From assembly GCA_964612595.1 (NCBI GenBank), contig CAZTFB010000003.1:98272-149340 (forward strand): 51,069 nucleotides of DNA. The letters are read 5' to 3'. Position 1 is the stretch's first letter, and each line of letters begins with the position of its first letter. This document shows positions 3,152-23,773 of the stretch, piece by piece. The position numbers and the translations under genes were made by a program. Under the pieces are notes generated by a model. It saw only the letters and a list, made by a program, of their open reading frames with translations. It was not told where the DNA came from and searched no databases. Source of the stretch: an uncultured Gammaproteobacteria bacterium. Its GTDB lineage: Bacteria; Patescibacteriota; Microgenomatia; UBA1406; HO2-37-13b.

Positions 3152-3166
3152 GCCTCGTATTTTCTC

Positions 3167-3196: not shown

Positions 3197-3203
3197 GTTT
3201 CAC

Positions 3204-3749
3204 ATGGATCAATCTAAAACTCTTCAACCTAATAAGAATATAGCCCTCATTGGAATAGTATTTTTTGTATTTGCAGTAAGTCTTATTATGGGACTTATCT
3301 TTGCACAGAAGAAATCCTCACCTACGAATAATAATGCAGAGGAAAATCAGCTTGGCTCAACTCAGCTTATGCTAAAGCCCCAAGTAACCTCACTTCAGAA
3401 AGGTGAAAGTACACAAGTAATGGTTGAGATTGCCGGATCCCCCTCTCAAGCGGCAGATATTGTCATTACCTTCGATCCAAAGCTTCTCAGAGCCTCGGAC
3501 ATAGTAAATGGCGATGTTTTCCCCGACTTACTACGCAGCGAAATAAAAGAGAACCAGCTTATTGTATCCTCAGCCGTCGACCCAAACAATCCTACCAATC
3601 TTAAAACAGGAGTCATATTCAGCTTTACAGTTACTGCAATGGAATCTGGATCAGCTGCACTTGAATTTAATAAAGATCTTACGATTACTGCGCATAGTGG
3701 TACTAACACACTTGGGTCTGCCGAACCAGTTACCATATCCGTAAAATAA
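3204..3749 (+). CDS. membrane-anchored single-cohesin-like protein
   Basis: The ORF track starts at 3195, but that ATG lies inside the -10 box, so ATG 3204 is favoured. One N-terminal TM helix ([21 protein letters not shown]). Cohesin-like signature [20 protein letters not shown] ... [20 protein letters not shown] resembles clostridial cohesins (F-x-YDP-x-x-L ... G-x-F). Confidence 0.75.
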
Positions 3750-3769
3750 AGTAGACGTTAGATGAAACT

Positions 3770-7059: not shown

Positions 7060-7088
7060 TATTGCCTTATCTTATCTAGAATGATCGT

Positions 7089-8774
7089 ATGTACGTCGTA
7101 AAGACTGCTCATATTTTTATAGTATTATTCCTACTTTCCCTGCTCGGTACGGGCTCTGTGGCCTACGGACAATCCAAGCCTGAGATTACCTATGTAAGAA
7201 ACGCCGATATTGGCTTCACTATTTCAAATATTACACCCTCACGTCAATGGGACTATATTCTATATTCTGATTTTTGTTTTAGCGCAAATCCCCCTTCAAA
7301 CGCCAGCGCCTCGGTTCAAGTAACTATGGATCTTAAAGACACCTCAAACCCCTCTCTAGAGAAAGAGGAGGTTATCGGTGCTGCTGTAAACCAGCTCATT
7401 ACAAACCCCGCAACAACTCGTTGTGGCTCTAGTAGGCTCCGCCGATTAACTGCGAATGCACCCTTTAATATTCCTCCTCGTGACAGATGGACTGAAAGTT
7501 GTCCAAGAATAAAGGTTAAAGTTATTACAAAGGGGCCATGGAGACCATTCCCTCAAGAAGACGTGGCCTACATCGAAAGAAGTTTCTTATGCCCTGATGG
7601 TGTTGTCGAAGATCCTGATCCTACTGCCACAACATCACCAAGCAGACCGACGGGAAGTGCTGGTCCAACACGTATCCCCTTTCGACCTCGACCAACATCT
7701 GTACCAACAAGCTCACCTACCCCTGAGCCTAATGCTATTGAAGGTCGTATCACTGTTTTCTCTTGTGCACAGCCAGAAAATGTTACCTTAAGTTATTGTG
7801 ATGATCCAAGTGGTTCAAGCTGTAGCGATATTAACCTATCGCCTACAAAACAAGATCAAGCGATATGGCTCGACGACGAGACGAATGAGCGCACATTTAT
7901 ATATAGATATCGCATAACGAAAGATAAAGCAGGAAATGAGCTCGACACGAGCAAGAAATACACTATATATAACGCAAACGCGCGCATAAAGAGATTTAAG
8001 GATGCAACCATAGAGTCATTCCCTTCACTCAAAGAAGACAAGAAAGAAGTTTCAGTGCCTGGTACACATGATCTTTCTGTGTATGCGGCCGCCCAAACTT
8101 GTGCATGTGTCTTTCATGCACGAGCTCATGTACGTGATGCAGATACGGGAGAAATTACCACCGCTCTTGATGAAGCCCTCGTTCCAGGCAAAGACTTAAC
8201 TTTCGGCAGCGCGAATGATATGCAAATAATTTCAAGAGGTGACAAACCTGTGAGCCCCTTTACAAATGGAATATTAGATGTTTTAGAAAGTCTTCATGAC
8301 ATAAATTACAGCAACACGGTCGGCCCATGGACACCGTACGGCATTGATGGCATGGCACACGTTCGTCTTTATGCACCAGGCTACAGTGTTGTTAAACAGC
8401 GCTGCCAAACAACTGCCCAAAGCCAGGTTCATGCCTGCCCAGGGGGCTCACTCGAAAGAGAGTCAACCTTTACTGATGACCATAACTTTGTGGGTTTCAG
8501 AGTTGCCTGCGGCGTTGATGTATCGTACGACTGGTATATAAGAAAAAATGCAGGGACCGCTGATGTAGCAGTCATGCGTGTGACCAAACCAGAAGATGTT
8601 GACATAAATAATGATGGATTTATAAATACTGCCGATCTTGTTGCTTGTATAGATGAATGGGGTACAGAATCAGGGTCCTATACTTGTGATATAAATAAGG
8701 ATAAAGCAGTAGATGCACTTGATTTATCACTCGTTACCAGTTTGCAAGGCGTAGACGTTAATGAAGCTCAATAA
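7089..8774 (+). CDS. secreted protein with conserved N-terminal domain, PT linker, Cys-bracketed module and dockerin pair
   Basis: 561-aa ORF with a signal peptide (…GTGSVAYGQ). The N-terminal domain is paralogous to the 12883 ORF (RQWDYILYSDFCFSANPPSN vs NRWDYMLSGGLCFTNNPPSN). C-terminus is DINNDGFINTADL ... DINKDKAVDALDLSLV. Confidence 0.8.
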   Translation: MYVVKTAHIFIVLFLLSLLGTGSVAYGQSKPEITYVRNADIGFTISNITPSRQWDYILYSDFCFSANPPSNASASVQVTMDLKDTSNPSLEKEEVIGAAVNQLITNPATTRCGSSRLRRLTANAPFNIPPRDRWTESCPRIKVKVITKGPWRPFPQEDVAYIERSFLCPDGVVEDPDPTATTSPSRPTGSAGPTRIPFRPRPTSVPTSSPTPEPNAIEGRITVFSCAQPENVTLSYCDDPSGSSCSDINLSPTKQDQAIWLDDETNERTFIYRYRITKDKAGNELDTSKKYTIYNANARIKRFKDATIESFPSLKEDKKEVSVPGTHDLSVYAAAQTCACVFHARAHVRDADTGEITTALDEALVPGKDLTFGSANDMQIISRGDKPVSPFTNGILDVLESLHDINYSNTVGPWTPYGIDGMAHVRLYAPGYSVVKQRCQTTAQSQVHACPGGSLERESTFTDDHNFVGFRVACGVDVSYDWYIRKNAGTADVAVMRVTKPEDVDINNDGFINTADLVACIDEWGTESGSYTCDINKDKAVDALDLSLVTSLQGVDVNEAQ

Positions 8775-11700
8775 TAAAGGATCGGTAACGGGTTTGCTTG
8801 TTGCTGGTATTAGTGTTGTTGCGCTCATTGCGACAGTCGTAGGTATCGCTCAAAATAACGCTTCACGAAAAGCATCCGAAGCGGCACTTAACTCAACAGG
8901 TGTCATGTTGCAAGAAAATACCCTTAAAGTAGAGCGTCTTGACGATACTCATCTCGAAATATCAGGTATGATTTGTTACTCCCGCCATCTCCAAAGTGGT
9001 GGAAAAGAAGACTGGACATTATGGGTAACCGACAATCGAGGTAAACCAATGGATGGCGATAATGATGGAAGTCATATTGATGGGGGTCGACTTTCTGTAG
9101 CCGGTAATGGTAGCTTTCCAGCAACCTGTGAGTATGTCGACCGCGCAGCGGGTATTGGAAAAATGCTTGATAAGAATCAAAAACAGCCTCACCGATTTTC
9201 AGTTATTGCGACCTCATCACGACGTTTAACCCCAAGCTACTGTCCTGAGATATACCTCCACTATAGAGGGTCATGGTTCTCGGGCACGCCATTTGCAAAA
9301 ATTGCGCTTGATAAGATCGAGGGTGCCTGTGGACCCACGTCTGAGCCAACACCTACCGACAATCCAACCTCAACAGTACCAACTGATGAGCCCGAAGAAA
9401 CGCCAGCGCCAACTGACATACTCGCAACACCGACCTTTACCCCCACACCAACGCCCGACGGTACTATAAGCGGTCGTATCTCTATCTATGGCTGTAAAAA
9501 ACCAAACCGCGCATCGGTTGATTTTTGTACTGGAGAAACCTGTGATGAACTCAATGGCGGGAAGATTATTTCGCTGCCATTTACTTCCGGCCCATCAGCA
9601 CAAGGCGTTTGGCTTGATGATACAAATGATGATAATACATGGATATACAACTATAGAATAAGTGTCGATAAAGATAATAATCCATTGGAACCATCTAAAA
9701 CCTACTTTTTATCGCGAGCATTGGGGTGGTTTGACAACGATGCGCTGTTTATTGATTCTGAGCGAGAGCAAGCTGAAAAGCTACGAGTGAAACCAGGCAC
9801 ACAGAGAGACTTTAAGGTTTATGCCTCTCGCACATGTGGTTGTGCATTTGATGCTGTTGCTTATGTGAAAGACACAAGTGGCAATATCATTACTGAGCTC
9901 GATAATAAACCTGGCATATACGGAACTGCCAATAATAAACAGTTTTATGATCGCGGCGACAAACCCGTGGAATCAGTCCCATTCAATAATTTGGGAAGCA
10001 ATCCTGGTCGTATAGATGTGCATATTACTGACTTAGGTGATTTTAGAGACTCCCGTACATGGGGTCGTGACGCACTAGCTGCTGTAAAGCTCTATGCTGA
10101 TGACTATCGCGTAGTAAAACAAGAATGCACAAGCAAAAATGCAAGTACACCGTCGTGTCCTGGATATACCACAACATGGAGTGAAACTGATATGACTAAA
10201 CTGCGCAATCCGAAGATATTTGAAAACCTTCGAGTTGCATGTAATACAAATCTTGAGTATGGTTGGATCATCGAAAAGATTCCTCCTACCCCTACTCCAC
10301 AGCCCCCAGCAGCACAACCACCAGTGGGTGGAGCACCGATTGGCTCAATAGCATGCGCACTACGTGACGACAACAATGCGAATGCAGCACAAAACGAAGG
10401 TTGTAAACCACGCAACTTCAGAATTAAAGAAATAAAAGAGCGAACTGCTAATCTTGAGTGGGATATTGCAGACAACTGTCCAACGTTTGTACGCGGTACC
10501 GATCGCTACTGGATAATTGTTAAAGATAAGGACACAGGTGAGATCGTCGCTTCTCGGAAAGGAATGAAAGACGAAGATGCTGGTGTAAAAACTAGTGATC
10601 GCAACCCAGGAGAACCCCCACACCAAGTCAGTGTTGTACGTAGAGAATATTATGATGAAGGCCAAGAGTATACAGCTTATCTTTACTCCTACTTAGATAA
10701 TAATGCCTCCTGTATGAGTAGTCCAGTATCGCTCAACTTTACGGGTGTTGCGCGCGATGACTCTGAAGAACCTGAGGAGCCAGGTGACCCAGGTAGTGGT
10801 GGCGGTGTATGTCCACAGTGGTGTGCAAACGAATCATACTGTAGAAGTCAAGGTTACGTACCAAAAGATCCACCGGCTGGTGAGCACTGTAGCGTCGCTG
10901 GCGACAAGTGGTGTTGTCCACCTGGAACCGAACCCCCTGGCGGTGGCGGTAGTGGCCCAGGCAACCCTGGCCAGCCAGGAAATCCTCCAGGACCAGGAGG
11001 ACAAGGCGTATGTCCCGCTAACTCTCGAGGCATCCCGGGGTTCGAGGGAGAGTCATTTACAAAATTTAGCCCAGAAAGTGATCGTGAGGTATGTTTGAGC
11101 TATTATCAAGGCACACAACCTGTTGATGCCAGTGATGGTGGATTCTGTTGTAGAACGGGCTCATCAAGCAATCCTGGACGTGGAGGCTCAGGGAGCAATG
11201 AATATGGAACATGCGATACTGCACAGAATGAGTATGGTATCGGTGGCCGACCACCAGCATTTAAATATGCTAATCTTGCTGAACGACAGTGTCGCGATAT
11301 GGGTGGAGACTGTAGTGCTCAAAAATCTCGCAATGGCTCTGGATACTGTAGCAAGGTCGCTGCGCCAACATCCACAGCAGTATGCCCATCAACCCATAAC
11401 AAGATCCTAGTTCCTCCTGGTGTGTGTGCTCCAGATGATATTGTACGTGTACGTAACTTGGGTAAAAATGAGGTATGCTGTAAAAAACAACCCTCATCAC
11501 CAGAAATTCCTTCTTGCGCTTCAAAAGGAATTGATAAGTCCGGTTCAAACGAAAGATGTAGCGCATATGCAGTGAAACTTGAAGGACAAGAGTTTATTTG
11601 TAAAAGTGACAGTGGTCTTACACATCGATGTTGTAAAGCAGATGCTAAAGTAGACGATAGAACTGCTGGAAATGCCAAGTGTATTCCACTTGAGCTGCCT

Positions 11701-12240
11701 AAAAGCTTGTTTACTGTGCGCTTTAAGGGTACGACTGAGTTTGCTGATGCAATAACAGTTAACCCCCTCACCGTGTGCAAAGGGGTAACATGTAAAGAGA
11801 TAGTTGGTGATATCCATATACAATTCAAGCCATGGGGTGGTGAATACTCTTTTGATGTGCCACTCGAAAATTTAGATGCTGGTAAGCTCACAATTGGATG
11901 CAACATATCTCTTTCCGATTCTAGATTTACCCCCTGTCGAACTTTCACTATCGAAATACCTAAAGATAGTGGAGGTTGTCGAGAATACCTCATAAGCATT
12001 AAAGACAATAAAATGACTAAAAATGAACCCGGTGGGAATTGTAAGGCCGGTACTTCAGCCCAGGTTGAACCTGAGCAGCTCGATGTGAATGGAGACGGCG
12101 TGATAAATACCATCGATCTACAATACCTCTACGACGAATACGGCGCCGAAGGCGCAACAACATCAGATGTAAATAAAGATGGTACGGTCAATGCGCTCGA
12201 TCTCTCCGTATTTATGGACTCTTTCGGGACCGAGCTCTAA
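8761..12240 (+). CDS. very large surface protein: anchor, PT linker, conserved module, FN3-like module, four Cys-rich CC-motif repeats, dockerin pair
   Basis: 1159-aa ORF. FN3-like stretch PRNFRIKEIKERTANLEWD...YTAYLYSY. Repeated modules end in WCCPPG, FCCRTG, VCCKKQ and RCCKAD. C-terminus is DVNGDGVINTIDLQYLYDEYGAEGATTSDVNKDGTVNALDLSVFM. Confidence 0.85.
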   Translation: MKLNNKGSVTGLLVAGISVVALIATVVGIAQNNASRKASEAALNSTGVMLQENTLKVERLDDTHLEISGMICYSRHLQSGGKEDWTLWVTDNRGKPMDGDNDGSHIDGGRLSVAGNGSFPATCEYVDRAAGIGKMLDKNQKQPHRFSVIATSSRRLTPSYCPEIYLHYRGSWFSGTPFAKIALDKIEGACGPTSEPTPTDNPTSTVPTDEPEETPAPTDILATPTFTPTPTPDGTISGRISIYGCKKPNRASVDFCTGETCDELNGGKIISLPFTSGPSAQGVWLDDTNDDNTWIYNYRISVDKDNNPLEPSKTYFLSRALGWFDNDALFIDSEREQAEKLRVKPGTQRDFKVYASRTCGCAFDAVAYVKDTSGNIITELDNKPGIYGTANNKQFYDRGDKPVESVPFNNLGSNPGRIDVHITDLGDFRDSRTWGRDALAAVKLYADDYRVVKQECTSKNASTPSCPGYTTTWSETDMTKLRNPKIFENLRVACNTNLEYGWIIEKIPPTPTPQPPAAQPPVGGAPIGSIACALRDDNNANAAQNEGCKPRNFRIKEIKERTANLEWDIADNCPTFVRGTDRYWIIVKDKDTGEIVASRKGMKDEDAGVKTSDRNPGEPPHQVSVVRREYYDEGQEYTAYLYSYLDNNASCMSSPVSLNFTGVARDDSEEPEEPGDPGSGGGVCPQWCANESYCRSQGYVPKDPPAGEHCSVAGDKWCCPPGTEPPGGGGSGPGNPGQPGNPPGPGGQGVCPANSRGIPGFEGESFTKFSPESDREVCLSYYQGTQPVDASDGGFCCRTGSSSNPGRGGSGSNEYGTCDTAQNEYGIGGRPPAFKYANLAERQCRDMGGDCSAQKSRNGSGYCSKVAAPTSTAVCPSTHNKILVPPGVCAPDDIVRVRNLGKNEVCCKKQPSSPEIPSCASKGIDKSGSNERCSAYAVKLEGQEFICKSDSGLTHRCCKADAKVDDRTAGNAKCIPLELPKSLFTVRFKGTTEFADAITVNPLTVCKGVTCKEIVGDIHIQFKPWGGEYSFDVPLENLDAGKLTIGCNISLSDSRFTPCRTFTIEIPKDSGGCREYLISIKDNKMTKNEPGGNCKAGTSAQVEPEQLDVNGDGVINTIDLQYLYDEYGAEGATTSDVNKDGTVNALDLSVFMDSFGTEL

Positions 12241-12270
12241 TTGACAAACAATTCACAACATATCTATAAT
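12241..12270 (+). promoter_or_regulatory. sigma70-type promoter (TTGACA-18 nt-TATAAT) driving a leaderless cohesin-like gene
   Basis: TTGACA at 12241-12246, 18-nt spacer, TATAAT at 12265-12270, ATG at 12277 six nt downstream. The TTG used as a start in the ORF track is the -35 hexamer. Confidence 0.65.
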
Positions 12271-12276
12271 GAATGC

Positions 12277-12879
12277 ATGGACACTCTCGCTGTTACTGTG
12301 CGTAAAGATCTTAAGGATTTTTTTACCCTTAGCCCCCAGGTAAAGTTCTTACTCACCATACAGCTCATCATTCTTTTCATTCTCAGCATTCTTATTGGTG
12401 TCATGTTTTCGCCCAAGTTCAAACAGAATGTCCTTCATCAAACGATACCAAATACCACCTTGAAGAACACACAAGACACGGGTGTGCGCCTTGTCTTGTT
12501 GCCTCAAGATAAATTCATCAAGCTTGGTGATGAAATCACTTTTTATGTCACTATGAGCGGAGACCCCGCATATGCAGTAGATACCGTCATTCAATATGAC
12601 CCAACTGTACTCCTTGTGAGGTCGGTTGAAAACGGAGACGTTTTTGATCGCATCATCTTAAATCAACTCGAATCTGGTTTAATCACCTTCTCTGCTGCTT
12701 ATGAACCTGGAAAAAATACATTTAAAAAAGAAGGTATTGTGCTAACGTTTAAGGCAAAAGCGTTAAAAAAGTCCCAAGAAACAATCATTCATTTCGACCT
12801 AGATCGCACAATAGCTGCCCAGGATGGCAAAAACATATTACATACGGCAGAGCCAGCCATTTTACATATATTTGATTAA
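12277..12879 (+). CDS. membrane-anchored single-cohesin-like protein
   Basis: TM helix FLLTIQLIILFILSILIGVMF. Cohesin-like signature VIQYDPTVLLVRSVENGDVF ... GIVLTFKAKALKKSQETIIHF. The start is moved from TTG 12241 to ATG 12277 (see promoter). Confidence 0.75.
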   Translation: MDTLAVTVRKDLKDFFTLSPQVKFLLTIQLIILFILSILIGVMFSPKFKQNVLHQTIPNTTLKNTQDTGVRLVLLPQDKFIKLGDEITFYVTMSGDPAYAVDTVIQYDPTVLLVRSVENGDVFDRIILNQLESGLITFSAAYEPGKNTFKKEGIVLTFKAKALKKSQETIIHFDLDRTIAAQDGKNILHTAEPAILHIFD

Positions 12880-12882
12880 ACA

Positions 12883-14997
12883 ATGAAAACTTTATCACTC
12901 GCCGTTATAGCACTCATGACAATAGGCCTTTTTGTCGGCGTGTCGTTTGTCACCAATCCACGATTACAGCAGCGTACCACCGAGGCATCAGTACCTCCTG
13001 AGCTTGTAGAAGTTACAAATCAGGATGTATCTATCGAGTTTACTAGCCTTGCTCCTCATAACCGATGGGACTACATGCTATCTGGTGGGCTTTGTTTTAC
13101 CAATAACCCGCCTTCAAACGGAAAATGGAAAGTCGCCGTCTATCACGATGACCTACTGAGCCCTGAAATTCCCATCGGTGCAAGTGTACAAAAAGCCGTA
13201 GGCAATCCATCAACGGCACGCTGCCGAGATGGTTCCCCCATGCTTTTATTTAATGCACCAATAAATATGCCTCCCTCGAGTAGATTGCCCGAAGGTGCAG
13301 ATTGTTTACCCGCCGGAAATCTTGATGTGCGTGTCGATACCGCTGGACCGCCATGGCAGATTCAGCCAGAAGTAGCAACAATTGACCGTGGCTATTTTTG
13401 TCCAGATGAACCTAACCCTACTGGAGATCCAAACAGTACCCCTACCCCTGCCGCTCCAGGGACAATAACTGTGAATCTCCAACTCGAAGGTGATTGGAAA
13501 TCAAACTTTAATGAATTTCAAGCTACAGCGATGACATGCGACTTCGCTGAGGACGGTCTCCCCGATTGGGAAACGTGCGGTTCAGGAGGTAATAAAACCT
13601 CAAACACAGATGTGACACGTAAAGGAAGTGGTAGCTCGATAAATAAAACGGTGAATCTTACTATTTCAGACACTCCTGGAGGACCAAAGGCGCTCGTCCT
13701 TTTCTATGACTATAAACGAACCGACGGAAAAGCAGATAATACTGGTGTCAAGGTTGAACCTATAAATAATACCAACTGTGGACCTTCATATGTAGATTTT
13801 GGAGCTTATGTCTGTGGTGTTGAACTTGGTGCTGCTGGTCTTACAACCACATTTAAGCTCAAAATACCAACACCAAATGCAACAACTTATGAATTGCGCC
13901 TTGGAAAGGAAGAAGCAGAAACTCGTGAAATTCTTGATCCGTGTACACATGCAATAGATTCAAATAATAAACAAGGTACAGTCGCAACCGGCGAACGGGG
14001 TCAGTGTAGTTCTGTAGCAGTAGGTAATAATTTTAAAGTCACATATCATAATAGCGGAAGCACTGAAGAAAAATTATACTGGTTGCTTGGTCGATGTAAT
14101 GGAACCTATGATGAAAATGAGGGCTATTGTGAGATAAACGCACCAGTTGAAACAACTGAGCTCGTGCAAAATTTCTTTGAGCTTGAAAATGCGACAACGC
14201 TTGCCGCTGGACAGGTTCTTGTGTGTACCTTTGATAAATCTAAATATCCAACTACGGAAAATGAGGCAAACGTGCGAAGTTCTGGAGCTGTGGTTTGCGA
14301 GAGTGTTGCACCTACACCTACACCTATTAACTCCCCCACGCCAACCGTTGCGCCAACAGCTACCAATACTCCAACCCCAACAGCATCAACTAATCCGCCA
14401 ACGGCGACTCCCACCCCAAGCGGTGCTGAGTCAGACTATTTCACAGGTATTTCTTTCTACAATGGTTCATCAAAAGCCGTCACAAGTATTACTACAATAA
14501 CCTGTTATGGCCCAGATAGATCGCAATGTGTATCTGAACTTGTCAACACCTCCATTCAGCCTCGCCAAAGGGGCACTGTTGAGACTAATCTCGTTTTACC
14601 ACGTAATGTGAACGAATATAGTGTGAAGTGTCGTGTCACTTTTGAAGGTAGTTCATCGCCTATAAATTGTCCGAACGAGGTTGTAACCCCTATTCGACAA
14701 AATGTGATCTATCGTATTGTCGCATCTGAGGCTGGAGGAATATCGGGCCAAGGCGTCACAGAGATTGATGCATGTGATGTAAATAAAGATTCCTGTTGTA
14801 ATGCAAATGATTTCTCAGTGGTTGCAACCAAGTATGCACAAGAGGTTGAGCCTACAGCTCAAAATTCCTCAGATATTAATGGAGACGGCATAATTAATGG
14901 ATTCGATCTTGTATTTACTCAAGCTAATTTCGGCAAGGGATTAGGATGCCAGTTCAATCTTGCTCCAGAATTGAAACCTGAACTGCGTCGGGATTAG
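12883..14997 (+). CDS. secreted protein with conserved N-terminal domain, PT linker and dockerin-like pair
   Basis: 704-aa ORF with an N-terminal TM/signal segment. The N-terminal domain is paralogous to the 7089 ORF. PT linker APTPTPINSPTPTVAPTATNTPTPT. C-terminus is DVNKDSCCNANDFSVV ... DINGDGIINGFDLVF. Confidence 0.8.
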   Translation: MKTLSLAVIALMTIGLFVGVSFVTNPRLQQRTTEASVPPELVEVTNQDVSIEFTSLAPHNRWDYMLSGGLCFTNNPPSNGKWKVAVYHDDLLSPEIPIGASVQKAVGNPSTARCRDGSPMLLFNAPINMPPSSRLPEGADCLPAGNLDVRVDTAGPPWQIQPEVATIDRGYFCPDEPNPTGDPNSTPTPAAPGTITVNLQLEGDWKSNFNEFQATAMTCDFAEDGLPDWETCGSGGNKTSNTDVTRKGSGSSINKTVNLTISDTPGGPKALVLFYDYKRTDGKADNTGVKVEPINNTNCGPSYVDFGAYVCGVELGAAGLTTTFKLKIPTPNATTYELRLGKEEAETREILDPCTHAIDSNNKQGTVATGERGQCSSVAVGNNFKVTYHNSGSTEEKLYWLLGRCNGTYDENEGYCEINAPVETTELVQNFFELENATTLAAGQVLVCTFDKSKYPTTENEANVRSSGAVVCESVAPTPTPINSPTPTVAPTATNTPTPTASTNPPTATPTPSGAESDYFTGISFYNGSSKAVTSITTITCYGPDRSQCVSELVNTSIQPRQRGTVETNLVLPRNVNEYSVKCRVTFEGSSSPINCPNEVVTPIRQNVIYRIVASEAGGISGQGVTEIDACDVNKDSCCNANDFSVVATKYAQEVEPTAQNSSDINGDGIINGFDLVFTQANFGKGLGCQFNLAPELKPELRRD

Positions 14998-15301
14998 AAG
15001 ATTTGGTTTTTTTAGCTGACTTCTTTGTTGCAACTACCGGAAACACCCCTAGATCTTTAAGCTTCCACATAAACAAGGCTCCTTTTCGACGTGCGCCCGA
15101 ATCAACGACAAACTGCAGAGCTTTTAACAATATCGGGCGCGGTAGTTGTTTTGAGAGTTTGATATAAAGACTTTTACGTTTTTCATCGTCTAGCTTCTCC
15201 GCAAGATGGACACCAAACGACTGATATTCACGCGAAATATAACGATCTTTTGTAGGATTAAACGTCTTTAATACGTCCTTAATGGAGTCCATATTCCCCA
15301 T
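14954..15301 (-). CDS. small basic hypothetical protein, divergent from the ATP-grasp operon
   Basis: 115-aa ORF with no family recognised. It shares a divergent promoter region with the 15341 gene. Its 3' end overlaps the convergent 12883 ORF by 44 nt. The tail is K/S/T/D-rich (ATKKSAKKTKSSNPD). Confidence 0.45.
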   Translation of the reverse strand: MGNMDSIKDVLKTFNPTKDRYISREYQSFGVHLAEKLDDEKRKSLYIKLSKQLPRPILLKALQFVVDSGARRKGALFMWKLKDLGVFPVVATKKSAKKTKSSNPDAVQVSILEQD

Positions 15302-15340
15302 TAGTATACAGTATTGTAATAGCCCATAATATGATATAAT

Positions 15341-16054
15341 ATGAGCATGTTTGCACCATTAATACAGTACTTAATTCGTAGCGGTATTTCAGAGTACACC
15401 ATACTCATGTTACTCTTTTTGCCCGTTGTGACTGTTCTCATTACTATCGCGCGCTACGTTATTGGTTGGAGAACCATAAACATCTATACGACAGTATTAC
15501 TTTCATACGCGTTATTCGATCTTGGTTACATTCGCAAAGGCTCAATAGACTATGCCAGTACTATTTTTTATGGGAGTCTGTTATTCGTCATCACATCAAC
15601 TATCGCAATTATGGTTCACTCTTGGCTACATAGTATTCGTCTCCATTATCTCTCAAAAGTAAGTATAGTCACATCTTTCGCAACAGTTGGTGTATTTGCT
15701 CTTCTTTACGCATCAACATTTTTAAAAGAAATTTCACTCAACGATATAACACCCCTCACAATTTTATTATTTATAATTTCAATTGAAGCTCTTGTGAAGT
15801 CATATGTTCGCCACGGTATGAAAAAAGCTCTCAATCTTATGGTATTGACAATCATTCTTACAGCCCTTATTTTTATGCTTATGAGCCAAGAAGTCCTTCA
15901 AAATGCGCTCATTGACTATCCAGAATTATCTCTCCTTATGATAGTGGCAAGTTTTGTTGTCGGAAAATGGCGTGGCCTAAAGCTAGTAGAATACGTACGT
16001 TTTAGAAATATCTTAAGCCAAAACTCCTATGATTCTGAAGATATTAGCGAATAG
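15341..16054 (+). CDS. polytopic (about 7 TM) membrane protein, first gene of the ATP-grasp cluster
   Basis: 237-aa ORF that is hydrophobic throughout. An extended -10 (TGATATAAT, 15332-15340) sits immediately upstream. The second ATG at 15347 lies 6 nt after the -10, so the true leaderless start may be 15347. Confidence 0.75.
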   Translation: MSMFAPLIQYLIRSGISEYTILMLLFLPVVTVLITIARYVIGWRTINIYTTVLLSYALFDLGYIRKGSIDYASTIFYGSLLFVITSTIAIMVHSWLHSIRLHYLSKVSIVTSFATVGVFALLYASTFLKEISLNDITPLTILLFIISIEALVKSYVRHGMKKALNLMVLTIILTALIFMLMSQEVLQNALIDYPELSLLMIVASFVVGKWRGLKLVEYVRFRNILSQNSYDSEDISE

Positions 16055-17465
16055 ATCGCGCATTCTCGGTCTTAATGAACGCAATATCTCGTACGTTAAA
16101 AAGTACAATCTCCCCTCTGCTCGAAAAATTGCTGATAATAAACTTCTCACGAAAAAAATCCTTGCTGAAATTGAAGTGCCAACTACTCGCGTTTTACATA
16201 TAATTAAAAACACTGAGCAACTAAGCAAGCTCGATATCGAAACTCTTCCCAAATCGTTCGTTGTCAAACCAGGCAGTGGTGTTGCAGGTCAAGGAATTGA
16301 AATAATATATAACCGCGACAAACAAGGTAACTTTATCAATGCATTAGGTCAAAAAATTTCTCCTGAAGCACTCAACTCTCTCATGGCTAGTATTTTGGAG
16401 GGCGCATTCTCACTCAACTATAGCCCCGATAAGGTTCTCATCGAAGAACGAGTCCAACCCCACCATAAACTCCGTCCGTATAGTTACAAAGGGGTACCCG
16501 ACATACGCGTTATTGTATTTAAAAATGTGCCAGTAATGGCAATGATTCGCTGGCCGACGAAAGATTCTGCTGGCAGAGCTAACTTTTCACAGGGTGCTGC
16601 AGGTAGTGGTATCGATTTGGCCACAGGTATTACAACACATACAATAAAAGAAACAAAAGAAGGTCGTATTGTTGATCTTGAATTTGTGGAAAATACGCGC
16701 ATTCGTTATTCAGGTTTTAAAGTCCCCTATTGGGATAAAATCCTTACTAATGCAGTTAAGTCGGCGAAAGCTGCTGGCCTCGGATTCTGCGGTGTTGACT
16801 TTCTTATTGATCGAGAACGAGGCCCCCTTGTTGTTGAAATCAATGCTCGTCCTGGATTGCGTATTCAACTTGCGAATCAGGATGGTCTTAGGTGGCGACT
16901 TGCGCAAATAAAGCACGTTCGTGTAAAAACACTTGCGCATGGCGTGAGATTAGGCAAAGATCTTTTTGGAGGTGAGGTCGAGGAAGAAATTGAGGCTATT
17001 GCAGGTAAAAAAGTTATCGGCCTCATTCAGCCTGTAAAGCTGTATCATAAGTCGGAGAAGCGTAGCTCAACAGTTATGGCGAAAATCGATACAGGAGCGA
17101 CCTATTCATCTATTGATCGACAGGTCGCAATAGATTTGGGCTATGGGAAGGCAGTCAAGGAGTTTGAGTCTCTTGATATTCCAAAACAGATTCCTACCCG
17201 AGAAGAAGGTGTTGCTATTAGTGAGAAATACCATACCATGCTTACTGAGGGAAATAGTGATATAGTCAATACAGAAGTCATTATTAATAGTAATGGTCGA
17301 AGTTATCGCATAATATTAGGAATTCGAGCAAAGATGCAAGATAAGGAGTTTTTAGTCCATGCCACGGTTATAGACCGCACAAATTTAGCTTATCCAATGA
17401 TTGTGGGAAAAAAAGATCTTAGCGACTTTCTTGTCGATACTACTAAAAAAACTTTGATCACATGA
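16029..17465 (+). CDS. ATP-grasp ligase (alpha-L-glutamate-ligase-related/RimK-like) fused to a C-terminal retropepsin-like aspartic peptidase domain
   Basis: 478-aa ORF. The N-terminus ILGLNERNISYVKKYNLPSARKIADNKLLTKKIL and VVKPGSGVAGQGIEII ... GVDFLIDRERGPLVVEINARPG are ATP-grasp signatures. The C-terminal MAKIDTGATYSSID carries a D-T-G-A aspartic protease motif. Confidence 0.75.
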   Translation: MILKILANRSRILGLNERNISYVKKYNLPSARKIADNKLLTKKILAEIEVPTTRVLHIIKNTEQLSKLDIETLPKSFVVKPGSGVAGQGIEIIYNRDKQGNFINALGQKISPEALNSLMASILEGAFSLNYSPDKVLIEERVQPHHKLRPYSYKGVPDIRVIVFKNVPVMAMIRWPTKDSAGRANFSQGAAGSGIDLATGITTHTIKETKEGRIVDLEFVENTRIRYSGFKVPYWDKILTNAVKSAKAAGLGFCGVDFLIDRERGPLVVEINARPGLRIQLANQDGLRWRLAQIKHVRVKTLAHGVRLGKDLFGGEVEEEIEAIAGKKVIGLIQPVKLYHKSEKRSSTVMAKIDTGATYSSIDRQVAIDLGYGKAVKEFESLDIPKQIPTREEGVAISEKYHTMLTEGNSDIVNTEVIINSNGRSYRIILGIRAKMQDKEFLVHATVIDRTNLAYPMIVGKKDLSDFLVDTTKKTLIT

Positions 17466-18322
17466 GAAACTACGTAATACTCTCCTCGAAACCCGAACAT
17501 GTATCTAAGTATAAATTTAAACAGCACACGTATTCTTATTCAAATGTATCAATATTTCTTAATCCAGCAGACAAAAAACAAAAAATCAAGGTGCTGATTA
17601 ATGGTACAGACGTCACTACATTTAATTTCGTGTATTTTCGTACTTGGAGAAAGTATGAAAACATTGCAACCCCGATAGCCTTATGCTTAAAGTCACTCAA
17701 AATTCCCTTTATTGATTCTGAAGTTGCTCGCAATCTATTAGATTCAAAGTCATTTGAGTATGTCACATTTATTCAAAATAATCTTCCAATTCCTCGCACA
17801 GTCATCGCTCATGCAGTACAATTAACATCTTTAGAACATGAATTGATGTCGTTTTTGACATACCCATTTATTCTTAAACTATCTGAAGCTAAACAAGGAC
17901 TAGATAACTATCTAGTTCGCTCACATAAAGAACTTTGCGAAATTCTTACATCCTACTCAGACGACCAGCTTTTTATAGCACAAGAATTTATTCCTAATGT
18001 AAGCGATTACCGATTGGTCATGACAAATTATGCATTATCCTACGCATACCAGAGAATACGAAGTGCGGACTCGCCTTCCCACCTTAACAACATATCGCAG
18101 GGAGCAAAGCGAAGAAGAGTCGCGAACATTACAGCGATACATGAACTCACTCTATTGGCTGCAAAGGCGAGCAAATTGCTTCACAGAGAAATATGTGGTG
18201 TTGACATTATTATTGATGCAAAAACCCAAAAGCCATATTTGTTAGAAGCAAACTCATCACCGCAACTTACCTATCTTCCAGTTCTTAAAAAAGTTAAAGC
18301 ATTTCTCAGCACATATGAATAA
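17462..18322 (+). CDS. RimK-like ATP-grasp ligase (paralog 1)
   Basis: 286-aa ORF with an ATGA overlap. Signatures: FILKLSEAKQGLDNYLV, FIAQEFIPNVSDYRLVM, ICGVDIIIDAKTQKPYLLEANSSPQL. Confidence 0.75.
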   Translation: MRNYVILSSKPEHVSKYKFKQHTYSYSNVSIFLNPADKKQKIKVLINGTDVTTFNFVYFRTWRKYENIATPIALCLKSLKIPFIDSEVARNLLDSKSFEYVTFIQNNLPIPRTVIAHAVQLTSLEHELMSFLTYPFILKLSEAKQGLDNYLVRSHKELCEILTSYSDDQLFIAQEFIPNVSDYRLVMTNYALSYAYQRIRSADSPSHLNNISQGAKRRRVANITAIHELTLLAAKASKLLHREICGVDIIIDAKTQKPYLLEANSSPQLTYLPVLKKVKAFLSTYE

Positions 18323-19208
18323 AAAAATACTCATTTTATCCTCACTAAGTCCCAAGAACCCTGGTGTAATGAAGACATTCGCCACGACTATCAAAAATAA
18401 GGGCTCGTTTTGTGTGACAACCTACAAGAATATTGCACTTGTTCTCGATGCTGCGTCGAAGAATAGCACAATATATGTTGATGGATCTGTTGTAAATCTT
18501 GCGGGCGTGTATTTTAGAGTACTATCAAAATACAGATCTTTAGCGCTTTCTTTAGCCCAAGTATTGCAAGATAAAGGGATCCCATTTGTAAATTCGATCG
18601 TTGGAGCTGAAACATTCGATGGAAAAGTGCTTGACTACATCTTGCTGTATAAAGAATTTCCAATTCCTAAGACGTTGGTTGCATATCCTGAGTGGATAGT
18701 AAAAAATACAACTCTTATCCATAAACATCTTTCATTTCCTTATATTTTAAAAACTGCGAATGGAAAAATGGGTTTGGACAACTATCTTGTGGATGATACA
18801 ACAAATCTTCAGGATATTCTTAAAAACTATTCGGACAGTGAACTTTTTTGCTTGCAAGAGTTTATACCAAACGAGTGTGACTACAGGATTATTGTTATTG
18901 GATATAAAGCAAAACAAATATATAGTAGGACAAGAGATGCATCATCCACATCTCACCTTAACAATGTCACACAAGGAGCAAAGCGAACTGACTTCACAAC
19001 AGAGTCAATGCCTGAGATCTGTACACTTGCTGAAAAAGCCGCAAAACACCTGCGTCGGGACATCTGTGGAGTTGATATTATCGTAGATTCATCTAGAAGA
19101 AACATGTATATTTTGGAGGTCAATTCTTCATCGCCTGGCTTACCTTATCCCTCATCCCACAGACTGATTGGCGCATTCCTTGAAACGAAATTTTTATCAA
19201 ACAAATAA
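18315..19208 (+). CDS. RimK-like ATP-grasp ligase (paralog 2)
   Basis: 297-aa ORF colinear with the previous gene. Signatures: YILKTANGKMGLDNYLV, FCLQEFIPNECDYRIIV, ICGVDIIVDSSRRNMYILEVNSSSPGL. Confidence 0.75.
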   Translation: MNKKILILSSLSPKNPGVMKTFATTIKNKGSFCVTTYKNIALVLDAASKNSTIYVDGSVVNLAGVYFRVLSKYRSLALSLAQVLQDKGIPFVNSIVGAETFDGKVLDYILLYKEFPIPKTLVAYPEWIVKNTTLIHKHLSFPYILKTANGKMGLDNYLVDDTTNLQDILKNYSDSELFCLQEFIPNECDYRIIVIGYKAKQIYSRTRDASSTSHLNNVTQGAKRTDFTTESMPEICTLAEKAAKHLRRDICGVDIIVDSSRRNMYILEVNSSSPGLPYPSSHRLIGAFLETKFLSNK

Positions 19209-20020: not shown

Positions 20021-20554
20021 CTAATCGGCCGCAAGGCGGATTTTTATTTCAGCTCGTATTTCCTCAAAAACTTGGTTGAGCTTTTCTTGCTCTTCACCTG
20101 TAAAATCCTGTAACACATACGAATAACCATCGATTCTGTTCTTAGGATCTCTTCCATCGACTCCAATGCGCACGCGCCAAAAATTCACGTCTCCGAGACT
20201 CTCTTCAACAGAAGTTATACCATTATGAACCTTTGGCCCTTTGCCTTGCTGTATCTTCCATGAACCAAAACTGATATCAAGGTCATCATGAACGACAAAA
20301 ACATCACTGACGTTTAATTTGTAGAAGTTCACCACTGCCGCTACCGCTTTTCCACTATCATTCATAAATGTAGAGGGCTTTAATAAAAGATACTTTTCAT
20401 CGCCAACTTTAATCTCTGCAACCATGCCATAAAATTTCTTTTCTTCGCGCCATACAACATCGCCATCTACCCAATCTAAAAACATAAACCCAACATTATG
20501 CCGATTTTTTGCGTATTTCTCACCTGGATTTCCTAGCCCAACAAGCAGTTTCAT
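20021..20554 (-). CDS. pth: peptidyl-tRNA hydrolase
   Basis: 177-aa ORF starting MKLLVGLGNPGEKYAKNRHNVGFMFLD, with VVHDDLDISFG. A -10 (TATACT, 20562-20567, minus strand) lies 7 nt before the ATG. Confidence 0.9.
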   Translation of the reverse strand: MKLLVGLGNPGEKYAKNRHNVGFMFLDWVDGDVVWREEKKFYGMVAEIKVGDEKYLLLKPSTFMNDSGKAVAAVVNFYKLNVSDVFVVHDDLDISFGSWKIQQGKGPKVHNGITSVEESLGDVNFWRVRIGVDGRDPKNRIDGYSYVLQDFTGEEQEKLNQVFEEIRAEIKIRLAAD

Positions 20555-20591: not shown

Positions 20592-20672
20592 GCCGGGGTG
20601 GCGAAATGGTAGACGCGCACGCTTCAGAAGCGTGTGTCGCAAGACATGGAGGTTCGAGTCCTCTCTCCGGCA
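20592..20672 (+). tRNA. tRNA-Leu (anticodon CAG), class II with long variable arm, no encoded CCA
   Basis: Hand-folded. Acceptor GCCGGGG/CTCCGGC (one G-U). Anticodon stem CACGC/GCGTG with loop TTCAGAA. 13-nt variable arm. T arm GGAGG-TTCGAGT-CCTCT. Confidence 0.85.
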
Positions 20673-20731
20673 CAACTTGTGCATAGCTTTTAATAAAAAC
20701 TTAATTTCTTCTATGTATACTACCTACGACC

Positions 20732-21091
20732 ATGGGTACACCCACTAAAAAATGGACCATCGAGTACTACAAAACTCCCTCTGGCAGATTCTCACCTGTT
20801 GCTATATTTATTGAAGGCCTTGCACCAAAAGCACAAGCAAAGCTGTCAACCATATTAAGACTTATGAGGGAGTTTGGTCCGCAAATTGGTTGGCCGCATG
20901 TCAAAAAAATGGTTGGTTTTCCATTGTGGGAAATACGTATTTTAGGTCAAGATAGTATTCGGATACTTTATTTTATTCCAAATAACAAAACAGTCTTACT
21001 ACTTCACGGTTTTATTAAAAAGAAACAAAAAACTCCATATAATGAAATCAAAACAGCTTTAGCTCGTTACAATAAATACATAGCTCATTGA
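20732..21091 (+). CDS. type II toxin, RelE/HigB (Gp49-like) family
   Basis: 119-aa ORF. WTIEYYKTPSGRFSPVAIFIEGL ... LWEIRILGQDSIRILYFIPNNKTVLLLHGFIKKKQKTP is typical of Gp49/HigB-like toxins. It is followed by an HTH antitoxin gene. Confidence 0.75.
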   Translation: MGTPTKKWTIEYYKTPSGRFSPVAIFIEGLAPKAQAKLSTILRLMREFGPQIGWPHVKKMVGFPLWEIRILGQDSIRILYFIPNNKTVLLLHGFIKKKQKTPYNEIKTALARYNKYIAH

Positions 21092-21102
21092 TGAGAATAC
21101 GT

Positions 21103-21132
21103 TTGACATATATCACAATATTGTGATATTAT
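21103..21132 (+). promoter_or_regulatory. promoter of the antitoxin gene with an embedded 20-bp perfect palindrome (putative operator)
   Basis: TTGACA at 21103-21108, 18-nt spacer, TATTAT at 21127-21132, ATG at 21139 six nt later. The palindrome ATATCACAAT/ATTGTGATAT at 21110-21129 fills the spacer. Confidence 0.6.
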
Positions 21133-21138
21133 CACGTT

Positions 21139-21429
21139 ATGAAAAACTATACTAATTGGGATGACCATGAAAGAGACTTGCTAAAAAATCCTGAATTTAG
21201 GGCTGCATTGAAGGAGGTTGAACTAGAATATCAGATTGCCCGAGCTGTGATTGCTGCTCGAATTCATAAAGGGCTTAGTCAAAGTGAATTAGCTGTCAAA
21301 CTCTCAACGCAACAATCAGTTATCTCGCGAGTAGAAAATGCAAAGACTGTCCCATCTCTTTCTTTCCTGAGACGACTTGCTACTGCACTAGATTCAACTC
21401 TTCAAGTAAGATTTGAATCGGCGAAGTAA
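21139..21429 (+). CDS. XRE-family helix-turn-helix antitoxin (HigA-like)
   Basis: 96-aa ORF. The HTH is KGLSQSELAVKLSTQQSVISRVENAK. It sits immediately downstream of the toxin. Confidence 0.8.
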   Translation: MKNYTNWDDHERDLLKNPEFRAALKEVELEYQIARAVIAARIHKGLSQSELAVKLSTQQSVISRVENAKTVPSLSFLRRLATALDSTLQVRFESAK

Positions 21430-22426: not shown

Positions 22427-23773
22427 TTAGTATGGAAGCTGTGCATGTTGCTTTTGTGAACCGAATCCAAAGTAACCTTTAACCTCATTCTCTAAGCGAT
22501 GAAGTGGCTCTTGAATATGCTGATTTGTCCTAAACTGATTCACTGCACCAAAATATACACCATCATTTGATGCTGCCTGTAAAACTTCAGGAACTCGCTT
22601 AAATCCTTTTTTTGCAAACTCGCCACCTAGCTTTCCACCTGTCCACCTACCTGCTAGTGCAACCTTCATGCCTGTTTTTGTAGCTACCCAGTTTGTGGCT
22701 GATGCTCCAGCAAAGGCCTTTATTGTATCTGCATTTCCTGCCTGGACATCATCATAAATACCATAGCCAATAAGCGGTGCAGCAATAGCAGTCTCGACAG
22801 TTGCATGTTGTATTAAATGCCCAGGGGCTGAATTTGATAAGCGCTGGACAACTGGACCAGATCTTGCGACTACTGCGGCATAGCGAGGATTAACAAAATT
22901 ACGTGCGGCTCCCATCCACTGACCGCCTACTGCCCCAAGCACTGCCTGCGAAGCTAACTTTGACCCGTTAAAATCTCCATCATAGGCTTGAAATCCCAGC
23001 TCAATTCCTGCACTTCCAACTGCACCTTGCACTGAACGATATGCCAACGCAGTACCGATTGCACTTGAGCCAGAAGACACCGCACTAGCGACAACACCGG
23101 ATGAAGCAACAGCGGGAACCGCAATACCTGCGCCTGCCACAGCTGCTCCGGCTACAGCAGAACCCATTACAGGATAATATATTGAATCTGGAATTCCTTG
23201 ATCTGGAGGCATGTCGAATACATCATTGCCCACAAAATACGGGTCTGACTTAACCCCAGTTTCAGAAAGTAGATCAATATAATCACTTTGTTCGCTAAGG
23301 CAGCGGACACAATTCCCGGTTGGATCGGTATATGATATTGGATTATTAAGTGCATATGCATATCTATGAGGCCCTTCTTTCTTATCTGCCTGAATAAACT
23401 GTCCCAGCTGGGGGCTATAAAATCGTGCACCTGCATGGTAAACTCCTGCTTTATCAAGCTCACGATGTCCAGTAAACTTTCTCTCCAAGGAGATATCTGC
23501 ATCCTTCATGTCCGTACCATATGGATAATACTCCTCGATTTTTGTATCACTATCCCCATTAATAACTCTGCTTGAACCTAGATAATCTTTTACAACAAGC
23601 GACTCATTTTCAATATTTTTAATCAATACCGCCTGGTTCGAAATTGGTATGTATAATTTCTGCGACGTTGTGCTTGCAGTAACAATACTTGGAGATAAAA
23701 GAAATAGAGCAATAGTTAAAAATCCTAATTTGATAATAAATCTCGCTTTAGAATATATACTTATTCTCCCCAT
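22427..23773 (-). CDS. stand-alone RHS repeat-associated core domain protein with its own signal peptide and a Gly/Ala-rich C-terminal domain (tip 2)
   Basis: 448-aa ORF with signal-like FLTIALFLLSPSIVTAS. Core domain: VKDYLGSSRVI ... YYPYGTDM ... FTGHRELDKAGVYHAGARFYSPQLGQFIQADKKEGPHRYAYALNNPISYTDPTGN. This is followed by AVAGAAVAGAGIAVPAVASSG glycine-zipper-like segments. Confidence 0.75.
   Translation of the reverse strand: MGRISIYSKARFIIKLGFLTIALFLLSPSIVTASTTSQKLYIPISNQAVLIKNIENESLVVKDYLGSSRVINGDSDTKIEEYYPYGTDMKDADISLERKFTGHRELDKAGVYHAGARFYSPQLGQFIQADKKEGPHRYAYALNNPISYTDPTGNCVRCLSEQSDYIDLLSETGVKSDPYFVGNDVFDMPPDQGIPDSIYYPVMGSAVAGAAVAGAGIAVPAVASSGVVASAVSSGSSAIGTALAYRSVQGAVGSAGIELGFQAYDGDFNGSKLASQAVLGAVGGQWMGAARNFVNPRYAAVVARSGPVVQRLSNSAPGHLIQHATVETAIAAPLIGYGIYDDVQAGNADTIKAFAGASATNWVATKTGMKVALAGRWTGGKLGGEFAKKGFKRVPEVLQAASNDGVYFGAVNQFRTNQHIQEPLHRLENEVKGYFGFGSQKQHAQLPY

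Follow-up and report, generated by a model that had tools for sequence, protein, structure and literature searches.

The locus described here raises the question of what an ultra-small bacterium does with a membrane protein, a ligase joined to a peptidase and two more ligases, all encoded in a single overlapping operon. It lies between positions 14954 and 19208 of the window, a stretch of 51,069 nucleotides from an uncultured Patescibacterium (GenBank assembly GCA_964612595.1, contig CAZTFB010000003.1, positions 98,272 to 149,340 of the forward strand). With moderate confidence the locus is read as a Patescibacterial form of the Rlo/Rim systems, namely a membrane-docked cytoplasmic cycle that would both make and trim acidic (probably glutamate) peptides. 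The features referred to below are the following, with the basis of each assignment in parentheses; 7TM stands for seven-transmembrane.

15341..16054, plus strand: 7TM_transglut-family protein, a RloB-like 7TM module without ectodomain, 237 aa (PF14402, RloB model)
16029-17465, plus strand: complete fusion gene, 478 aa (open reading frame and domain matches)
16029..16990, plus strand: N-terminal RloC-like ATP-grasp amidoligase domain of the fusion, residues 1 to ~320 (PF14397, TIGR02291, AlphaFold2 model)
17004..17465, plus strand: C-terminal retropepsin-like domain of the fusion (PF05618, RloA/RimB-type), residues 326-478 (profile, Foldseek)
17082-17099, plus strand: KIDTGA active-site motif of the fusion (sequence)
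17462..18322, plus strand: accessory RimK-like ATP-grasp ligase A, 286 aa (PF08443)
18315..19208, plus strand: accessory RimK-like ATP-grasp ligase B, 297 aa, tandem paralog of A (PF08443)
15332..15340, plus strand: extended -10-like element TGATATAAT, candidate operon promoter (manual reading and conservation)
14954..15301, minus strand: divergent 115-aa open reading frame, a Microgenomates-restricted neighbour outside the conserved core (homolog distribution)

The five open reading frames (ORFs) sit exactly where the initial annotation had placed them. The four plus-strand genes overlap one another, by 26 nt between the 7TM and fusion genes, 4 nt between the fusion and ligase A, and 8 nt between ligases A and B, while the 3' end of the ligase B gene overlaps a convergent nfo-like (AP-endonuclease) gene by 12 nt and a spacer of 39 nt separates the 7TM gene from the divergent 115-aa ORF. 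The locus is not a chance pattern, because the ORFs are long, their family matches are highly significant and hundreds of full-length homologs exist. Pfam and NCBIfam searches upheld the domain calls made earlier from the sequence (PF14402, PF14397/TIGR02291, PF05618-type and PF08443). The locus had also been assigned to the predicted association of ATP-grasp ligases with 7TM_transglut and PF05618 proteins; this membership holds, and the association is now partly characterised as RloABC (PMC12239564) and RimABK/RimBK (PMC11957791).

Over residues 9-303 the ligase domain of the fusion is matched by PF14397 (ATPgrasp_ST) with E=8.8e-59 (199 bits, cut-off 31.4) and by TIGR02291 with E=6.3e-74 (248.8 bits, under the equivalog cut-off of 314.2). 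The whole fusion was modelled by AlphaFold2 with a predicted local distance difference test score (pLDDT) of 90.2, and the best fold matches of its N-terminal domain are RimK (5zct) and ArgX/LysX. Residues K80, E139, D257, E270 and N272 of the ligase are invariant in 78 of 78 full-length fusion homologs. With PRK10446, the S6-ligase equivalog, the fusion scores 27 bits (cut-off 331), and the Pfam and NCBIfam searches reported no Rimk_N domain in it. The nearest named relatives of the fusion are found in Microgenomates OLB23 (85%), Roizmanbacteria and Woesebacteria; one relative is located on a chromosome of 938 kb. The window as a whole reads as part of a Microgenomates (OP11, Patescibacteria) genome.

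The C-terminal domain contains KIDTGATYSSID. As a single sequence it matches PF05618/RloA3 weakly over residues 328-473 (PF05618 21.7 bits, gathering score 27), and a PF05618 annotation is precomputed for most of its homologs. A family profile built from 90 sequences matches RloA (9g58, 4.5e-7), RloA2 (9g59, 5e-7) and Lpg0085 (2pma, 8.6e-6). Residues 326-478 modelled alone reach a pLDDT of 94.7, and Foldseek ranks 2pma, 9g58 and 9g59 first for this model, followed only by the RVP domains of Ddi1 and retroviral proteases such as HIV protease. The retropepsin fold that had been proposed for this domain is thus borne out by the profile and by the domain model. In the hidden Markov model alignment, K352, D354, R427 and R450 of the fusion fall on K46, D48, R114 and R137 of RloA, and the RloA motifs AKLDTGA, TARPV and TDRSAFQYPLLIG fall on K352-I-D354-T-G-A, R427 and D449-R450...G460. 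The D-to-R spacings of 66 and 89 along 9g58 are those of D48, R114 and R137 in RloA of P. aeruginosa (PMC12239564), and the two arginines are 23 residues apart in RloA and the fusion alike. Mutation of K46, D48, R114 or R137 was reported to impair the cleavage of poly-Glu by RloA (PMC12239564). The basic residues K46, R114 and R137 line the channel of the RloA peptidase and bind poly-Glu; the fusion keeps all three, and the catalytic aspartate too. The signature K352-x-D354-T-G-A...R427...R450...G460 is whole in 69 of 78 fusion homologs; K352, R427 and R450 are individually kept in 69-74 of them, and D354 and G356 are conserved. An insert of ~45 residues, forming two helices after the DTGA strand, sets the domain apart from RloA. 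Residues 326-478 contain no cysteine and no signal peptide. The peptidase must therefore work where RimB does, in the cytoplasm: the domain ahead of it is ATP-dependent and cytoplasmic, and no signal peptide precedes it.

The 7TM protein is matched by PF14402 (7TM_transglut) with E=3e-13, over the gathering score and across profile positions 58-247 of 248, which cover the 7TM part only. The NCBIfam model of RloB matches it at the C-terminal positions 313-506 of 508 (3.6e-14). It has seven hydrophobic segments, and an N-out/C-in topology is predicted because lysine and arginine number 12 on the C-side loops and 4 on the N-side; the periplasmic N-terminal ectodomain of RloB agrees with this topology. 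The best-conserved feature of the family is the juxtamembrane motif G-[KR]-W-x-G-L-R-x-x-E-[YL]-x-R-F, in the window protein G208, G212-L-R214, E217 and R220-F221 on the cytoplasmic side; the intramembrane E149 and R-x-x-x-G in loop 1 are also kept family-wide. This motif may be the docking surface for the ligase. With the 7TM protein as query, a word-indexed search found no more than 11 close relatives; an exhaustive profile search, used in its place, gave 900 representatives; among the best 149 of these, 79 are at most 265 aa long, 41 are longer than 470 aa and the rest are intermediate. The homologs of RloB length (470-545 aa) match along their C-terminal 7TM part, all 76 Patescibacterial partners are 213-254 aa long, and the 532-aa 7TM partner in the cassette of locus L108 bears a PKD ectodomain in place of the transglutaminase. 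Judged from these length classes and the PKD form, the ectodomain is a variable add-on of the 7TM module, and the form without it is common. The tail that follows the juxtamembrane motif has a median length of 11 aa in the family. Of 35 RloB-length proteins, 18 have a tail that ends in EE or EEE, and of 143 short forms, 43 have one that ends in D or E; in the window the tail reads ...YDSEDISE. About half of the RloB-length representatives (P0157-P0280) end in Glu-Glu or Glu-Glu-Glu directly after the motif (...HAEEE, ...YSEEE, ...HVEE), an ending of which no mention was found in the Rlo paper (PMC12239564).

The distribution of the cassette was surveyed by scanning one genome per species, which gave 80 loci whose ORFs were called mechanically and searched with the window proteins. 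Loci with a named lineage are nearly all Patescibacterial (Microgenomates, Roizmanbacteria, Woesebacteria, Dojkabacteria/WS6, Moranbacteria, Paceibacteria, Minisyncoccia), and several ENA labels among the 80 ("uncultured Gammaproteobacteria/Saccharibacteria") look automated. A 7TM gene lies on the same strand directly upstream of the fusion gene in 76-78 of the 80 loci and is absent only at contig ends; in 71 of 76 cases the two genes overlap or are separated by at most 20 nt. The 7TM and fusion genes together form the conserved unit, and their pairing is obligatory. The ligase-peptidase fusion and the 7TM protein lacking a transglutaminase, both regarded at first as unusual, are standard in all Patescibacterial loci sampled, and ligase-retropepsin fusions are known beyond them in RimBK and in clusters of the type of locus L092.

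Matters stand otherwise with the number of ligases. The initial annotation had made its reading depend on the three ligases being conserved as a unit in relatives, and this was not found. For 56 loci with at least 4 kb of downstream sequence, a conservative count gives no accessory ATP-grasp gene in 25, one in 15, two in 12 and three in 4, and looser clustering raises the number to as many as five. A single RimK paralog is present in the closest relatives, L001 and L010 (85-87% identity), and two in OLB23, as in the window. The three ligases are one state of a variable array, since the number of accessory ATP-grasp genes varies among loci. Ligases A and B share 42% identity and match PF08443 (RimK) with 1.1e-15 (58 bits) and 2e-17 (64 bits), respectively, at a cut-off of 21. 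They score 65 and 91 bits with TIGR00768 (cut-off 143) and ~25 bits with PRK10446 (cut-off 331). The Pfam search gave no PF18030 (Rimk_N) match in either, while the true RimK in L092 shows one. The GVD...LE(A/V)N Mg/ATP motif is kept in both (GVD...LEAN in A), and K, D, E and N are invariant in the RimK-paralog alignments A7 and A8; the broad alignment A7 was too diverse for the collection scan and the narrower A8 was used. The best solved relative of ligase B is RimK (5zct, 1.1e-5).

Accessory ligases adjoin the core in 31 of the 56 loci, as a rule directly next to it and in the same orientation. The eight closest metagenomic relatives of the window paralogs (L081-L088) are all encoded directly downstream of a 7TM plus fusion cassette, and a reverse search found more distant RimK-like genes in other contexts. 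In L119 and L121 the domain search identified a 926-aa triple fusion of ATPgrasp_ST, PF05618 and ATP-grasp_3 (L119:6587-10113, minus strand) beside a 248-aa 7TM protein and a DUF3541 gene. On the strength of the adjacency, the L119 fusion and the cassette-side position of the closest paralog relatives, the accessory ligases are considered functionally linked to the core. Proteins of 613 aa downstream of the fusion in L009, L087 and L088 were considered as fusions of two RimK-like ligases and are not clear ones, as they have one good RimK-like domain and a C-terminal half that is unassignable. DUF3541 (PF12060) recurs among the accessory genes (L011:10419-11375, L013, L050, L076, L119, L128) and may belong to some versions of the system as an additional component. 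In ~32 loci of Dojkabacteria and relatives (L011-L053, L068, L080) the genes secE-nusG-rplK-rplA-rplJ-rplL are followed on the same strand, after 75-300 nt, by the cassette, where rpoBC would usually come next (for example L011:4137-7112), and MreB is encoded convergently downstream in 29 of these.

The peptidase of the cassette is itself subject to displacement. In L059, L060, L068 and L080 proteins of ~815 aa combine a retropepsin remnant with an appended, intact HExxH MATCAP/DUF1704 domain (TIGR02421, "QEGLA"). The remnant has DTSR in place of DTGA and lacks K352 and R450 as well as the helical insert and the R427 hairpin. A simple replacement of the retropepsin by MATCAP was discarded, for the alignment shows that the degenerate remnant is kept and MATCAP is appended to it. 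Other loci contain stand-alone MATCAP, DUF3541, GNAT-ATP-grasp or cyanophycin-synthetase-like ligases, and in L108 (1042-6900) a stand-alone MATCAP and a double ATP-grasp gene follow the fusion gene. The decay of the retropepsin together with the gain of MATCAP in four relatives suggests that the ligase needs a partner peptidase. That the ligase always keeps some peptidase, either an endopeptidase acting on acidic runs or a carboxypeptidase, fits a cycle of addition and removal on a peptide tail. MATCAP and CCP are carboxypeptidases that oppose the TTL/TTLL ATP-grasp ligases on tubulin tails. This eukaryotic cycle, in which ligases extend an acidic C-terminal tail and a peptidase removes the addition, serves as a working analogy only. 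It is shared to the extent that in relatives of the cassette a PF08014 MATCAP domain is fused to the ligase or encoded beside it; it differs in that no tubulin-like acceptor is known and that the window has a retropepsin instead of MATCAP.

Neighbourhoods of ATP-grasp, 7TM-inactive-transglutaminase and peptidase genes were reportedly described by Iyer, Abhiman, Burroughs and Aravind in 2009, with predicted peptide ligation and peptidase processing. To our knowledge that description includes no fused ligase-retropepsin, ectodomain-less form, variable ligase array or MATCAP displacement. The RloABC operon has been described in Pseudomonas (Lormand et al. 2025, mBio; PMC12239564), where the effect of losing the RloA peptidases is suppressed when rloB or rloC is deleted, and 96% of RloB matches were reported from Proteobacteria (PMC12239564). 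RimB strips poly-Glu from RpsF and stimulates the synthesis of poly-alpha-Glu by RimK (Little et al. 2025, JBC; PMC11957791), a natural RimBK hybrid is proteolytically active and RimK-type ligases prime on C-terminal Glu-Glu (PMC11957791). RimB and RloA both cut runs of at least eight Glu (PMC11957791, PMC12239564). The substrates of such systems had been described as uncharacterised; this no longer applies to the peptidases, as RloA and RimB cleave poly-Glu in vitro, and it still applies to the physiological substrate of Rlo. No description of the system in Patescibacteria was found in the literature searched.

The window locus shares with RloABC a PF05618 DTGA retropepsin with the poly-Glu-binding K/R positions, an ATP-grasp of the PF14397 family (TIGR02291-like, under the equivalog cut-off) and a PF14402 7TM module in which the cytoplasmic motif G-L-R-x-x-E-Y-x-R-F recurs. 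It differs in several respects. RloA is secreted and disulfide-stapled, whereas the window peptidase is fused to the C-terminus of the ligase and has neither signal peptide nor Cys pair; RloB has a periplasmic inactive transglutaminase domain, which the window 7TM protein lacks. The gene order is different, the Patescibacterial form has up to ~five extra ATP-grasp genes, and the host is a Patescibacterium, assumed to be monoderm. With RimABK/RimBK the locus has in common a cytoplasmic retropepsin coupled, and sometimes fused, to a glutamate ligase of the RimK superfamily, the Rim peptidase cleaving poly-Glu and modulating the ligase. In RimBK, however, the peptidase is N-terminal to a bona fide RimK (Rimk_N plus RimK), whereas in the window the N-terminal part is the ligase, which is ATPgrasp_ST/RloC-like. 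No 7TM partner belongs to the rim loci as described (PMC11957791, PMC12239564), and RimBK was reported mainly from Flavobacteriales and Rhodobacterales, while the window cassette is Patescibacterial. Compared at the level of domains and gene order, the locus resembles RloABC and RimBK yet belongs to neither: it is set apart from RloABC because the peptidase is not secreted and the transglutaminase ectodomain is missing, and from RimBK because ligase and peptidase stand in the opposite order and no true RimK takes part.

A third arrangement is seen at L092:5094-8302 and at ~20 similar metagenome loci (L089-L117), which encode a RimK-like protein of ~310 aa, a RimK-like-PF05618 fusion of ~460 aa and a RimK of 301 aa. 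The fusion of these clusters, ligase first and peptidase second, is distinct from the published RimBK. Like the window protein, that of L092 (459 aa) has its ligase at the N-terminus and its retropepsin at the C-terminus, and further RimK-like ligases flank it; unlike it, the ligase domain is of the RimK and not the ATPgrasp_ST type, no 7TM gene is present and a canonical RimK with Rimk_N is adjacent. Judged by these architectures, ligase-retropepsin fusions arose at least three times, as RimBK, as the L092 type and as the ATPgrasp_ST-PF05618 form. Klebsiella CfmP was considered as a relative and set aside, being a TupA-like ATP-grasp unrelated to the cassette.

For the membrane-docked cycle favoured here we infer the following course. 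The 7TM protein, homologous to the membrane half of RloB, would most likely dock the cytoplasmic bifunctional enzyme through its basic C-terminal motif. The RloC-like ATP-grasp domain would spend ATP on joining amino acids, most likely alpha-linked glutamate, to a carboxylate acceptor, and the product would be an acidic oligo- or polypeptide, either free or as the tail of a protein. The C-terminal retropepsin, presumably dimeric within an oligomeric enzyme, would cut long acidic runs and so limit the chain length and reset the modification; it might also stimulate the fused ligase, as RimB does RimK. Ligases A and B would be optional extension ligases that lengthen or widen the product. The 7TM protein may export the product, sense or transmit a signal, or be the target itself.

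Several points weigh against this reading. Orthology of the fusion ligase to RloC is not established, because its TIGR02291 score falls under the equivalog cut-off, although PF14397, well over its own cut-off, places it in the family. Pfam names PF14397 'sugar-transfer associated', so a non-peptide acceptor is possible. No recurring acceptor gene was found in the cassette neighbourhoods across clades. The mechanism of Rlo may not transfer to a locus that has a cytoplasmic peptidase and no ectodomain.

Among the other explanations, the 7TM protein could be the acceptor in a self-contained, reversible tail code, in which the ligase or ligases polyglutamylate its cytoplasmic C-terminal tail, the retropepsin or MATCAP trims it, and the length of the tail tunes the activity of the 7TM protein, much as RimK does with S6 and as TTL/TTLL and MATCAP/CCP do with tubulin. 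The tail is a possible acceptor because its Glu-rich end resembles the Glu-Glu end of S6 on which RimK primes (PMC11957791). The frequent acidic ends given above, including that of the window protein, are in accord with it, as are the predicted cytoplasmic position of the C-terminus and the acidic 7TM tails of the MATCAP-bearing relatives, and it would account for the 7TM protein being the sole universally co-conserved partner. The counts of acidic ends are uncorrected for phylogeny, however. Moreover, Paceibacteria-type tails that end in ...RFRKIISNQ, and some others that are K-rich, coexist with fusions whose K-DTGA-R-R signature is intact. Because the acidic pattern is not universal, this explanation is held to be unlikely. 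If true, it would be a prokaryotic counterpart of tubulin glutamylation and tyrosination, and would reveal the long-sought substrate of the RloBC pair of Pseudomonas.

Somewhat doubtful as well, and rather unlikely, is a modification of the envelope, in which the ATPgrasp_ST ligases would decorate a lipid-linked or glycan precursor held by the 7TM protein with amino acids, to be edited by the peptidase. The Pfam name of PF14397 points this way. In Pseudomonas, rlo mutations change the shape of the cells, their sensitivity to beta-lactams, their tolerance of hypo-osmotic conditions and the formation of biofilms; membrane vesicles are overproduced by a Shewanella mutant in a 7TM-transglutaminase gene; and the cassettes of Microgenomates adjoin a conserved block of surface-protein genes. 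However, the poly-E-binding residues of the peptidase are conserved, the peptidase in the fusion is cytoplasmic, and the recurrent neighbours, as far as their families were identified (part of them), are ribosomal proteins, NusG, SecE and MreB and not glycosyltransferases.

The tailing of a ribosomal or other soluble protein, as RimK does on S6, would make the cassette a regulator of translation with the 7TM protein only as signal input. RimK, RimB and RimBK are its precedents, and the ~32 loci with the cassette downstream of secE-nusG-rplKAJL would suit it, but this synteny is confined to some clades and absent from the window, and the ligases score only ~25-27 bits against the S6-ligase cut-off of 331. 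L7/L12, suggested as acceptor by the position of the cassette after rplL, is unsupported, as it has the canonical C-terminal Lys in 28 of 32 rplL-type loci. Tailing of this kind is considered quite improbable.

The divergent 115-aa ORF had been put forward as a substrate or graspetide-like core. It has homologs only in loci of the Microgenomates type (nine, or 10 genomes with the window), lies on the opposite strand in L005 and L007, and had no match in the Pfam, PDB or PHROG searches. Residues 4-85 are well conserved, and the K/S/T-rich tail noted earlier is indeed present at its end in the window; it is variable or missing in the homologs (absent in L003, L005 and L009). As substrate or precursor the ORF was rejected for its unconserved tail, its restriction to one lineage and its changing orientation, and it would not be a substrate core because the tail is not conserved and the ORF is limited to Microgenomates. 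A system for a ribosomally synthesised and post-translationally modified peptide, with ATP-grasps cyclising or decorating a precursor, the K/S/T/D tail of this ORF as core and the retropepsin as leader peptidase, could draw on the adjacency of the ORF with its polar tail and on PsnB-type ligases among the fold matches, but these rank below RimK and ArgX, the graspetide ligase model reaches only E=0.0067, and a small precursor gene would find no intergenic space in the operon; with the tail comparison, which largely refutes it, this is very improbable. A chance cluster of ATP-grasps of primary metabolism (LysX/ArgX, F420 or H4MPT glutamyl ligases, Ddl, GshB, cyanophycin synthetase), all of whose models give weak sub-threshold matches, is hardly credible, since these scores are far under the cut-offs (LysX 72 against 276 bits, MptN 62 against 350, Ddl 26 against 243), none of the three ligases reaches an equivalog cut-off for LysX, MptN, CofF, Ddl, GshB, cyanophycin synthetase or S6 ligase, so that they do not map to known enzymes of primary metabolism, and the 7TM and peptidase pairing is obligatory across 76-78 genomes.

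The start of the operon was read by comparison with relatives. The element TGATATAAT (15332-15340) equals the extended -10 consensus and is invariant in the window, L001, L002, L010 and L003, the spacer of L003 having diverged outside it; the element and the ATG at 15347 are unchanged in relatives down to 58% protein identity. A generic promoter scan did not flag it, and promoter and terminator scans gave fewer matches than shuffled controls. Many 7TM homologs begin at residue 3, and the ATG at 15341 is GTG in L002 (OLB23). The true start of the 7TM protein is probably the ATG at 15347, because homologs begin there and this codon is invariant while that at 15341 varies. The operon promoter may lie at 15332-15340, and the transcript is possibly leaderless.

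Elsewhere in the window, the plus strand of 155-14997 encodes large secreted proteins that each end in a dockerin type I domain (998, 832, 561, 1159 and 704 aa), two of them with VWA, and among them a 212-aa membrane-anchored cohesin protein (12241-12879). These genes look like a cellulosome-style cohesin-dockerin surface assembly in a bacterium of the candidate phyla radiation. In L001-L010, the loci of Microgenomates, synteny with the cassette extends to the cohesin gene, the gene for the 704-aa dockerin protein and the 115-aa ORF. At 20732-21429 (plus strand) a Gp49-like ORF of 119 aa (PF05973, HigB-type) is followed by a 96-aa HTH_3 protein, a probable toxin-antitoxin pair that adjoins tRNA-Leu(CAG) at 20592-20673 and a peptidyl-tRNA hydrolase-like gene at 20021-20554 (minus strand). 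The region 22427-30256 (minus strand) contains a 1695-aa RHS-repeat protein (25169-30256) and then ORFs of 479 and 448 aa without Pfam match, the latter with an RHS-core-like stretch '...YAYALNNPISYTDPTG'; it may be a polymorphic toxin locus. From ~47400 to 51069 the G+C content rises from ~0.41 to 0.55-0.57, ORFs overlap on both strands and an Rfam search gave no match; this end may have come from a foreign source, a mobile element or a join made in assembly.

In Pseudomonas, RloABC affects osmotic tolerance, antibiotic sensitivity, biofilm formation and cell shape. The Patescibacterial form would be RloABC reduced to two genes, with ligase and peptidase in one cytoplasmic polypeptide and no ectodomain, and thus a simpler setting in which to find the product and the acceptor. 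It is of interest chiefly because so small a version of the system lends itself to experiments on the substrate. The retention of the cassette in genomes of ~1 Mb across several Patescibacterial classes, together with repeated swaps of peptidase (retropepsin to MATCAP) and repeated gains of ligases, suggests a selectable and tunable membrane function in these episymbionts.

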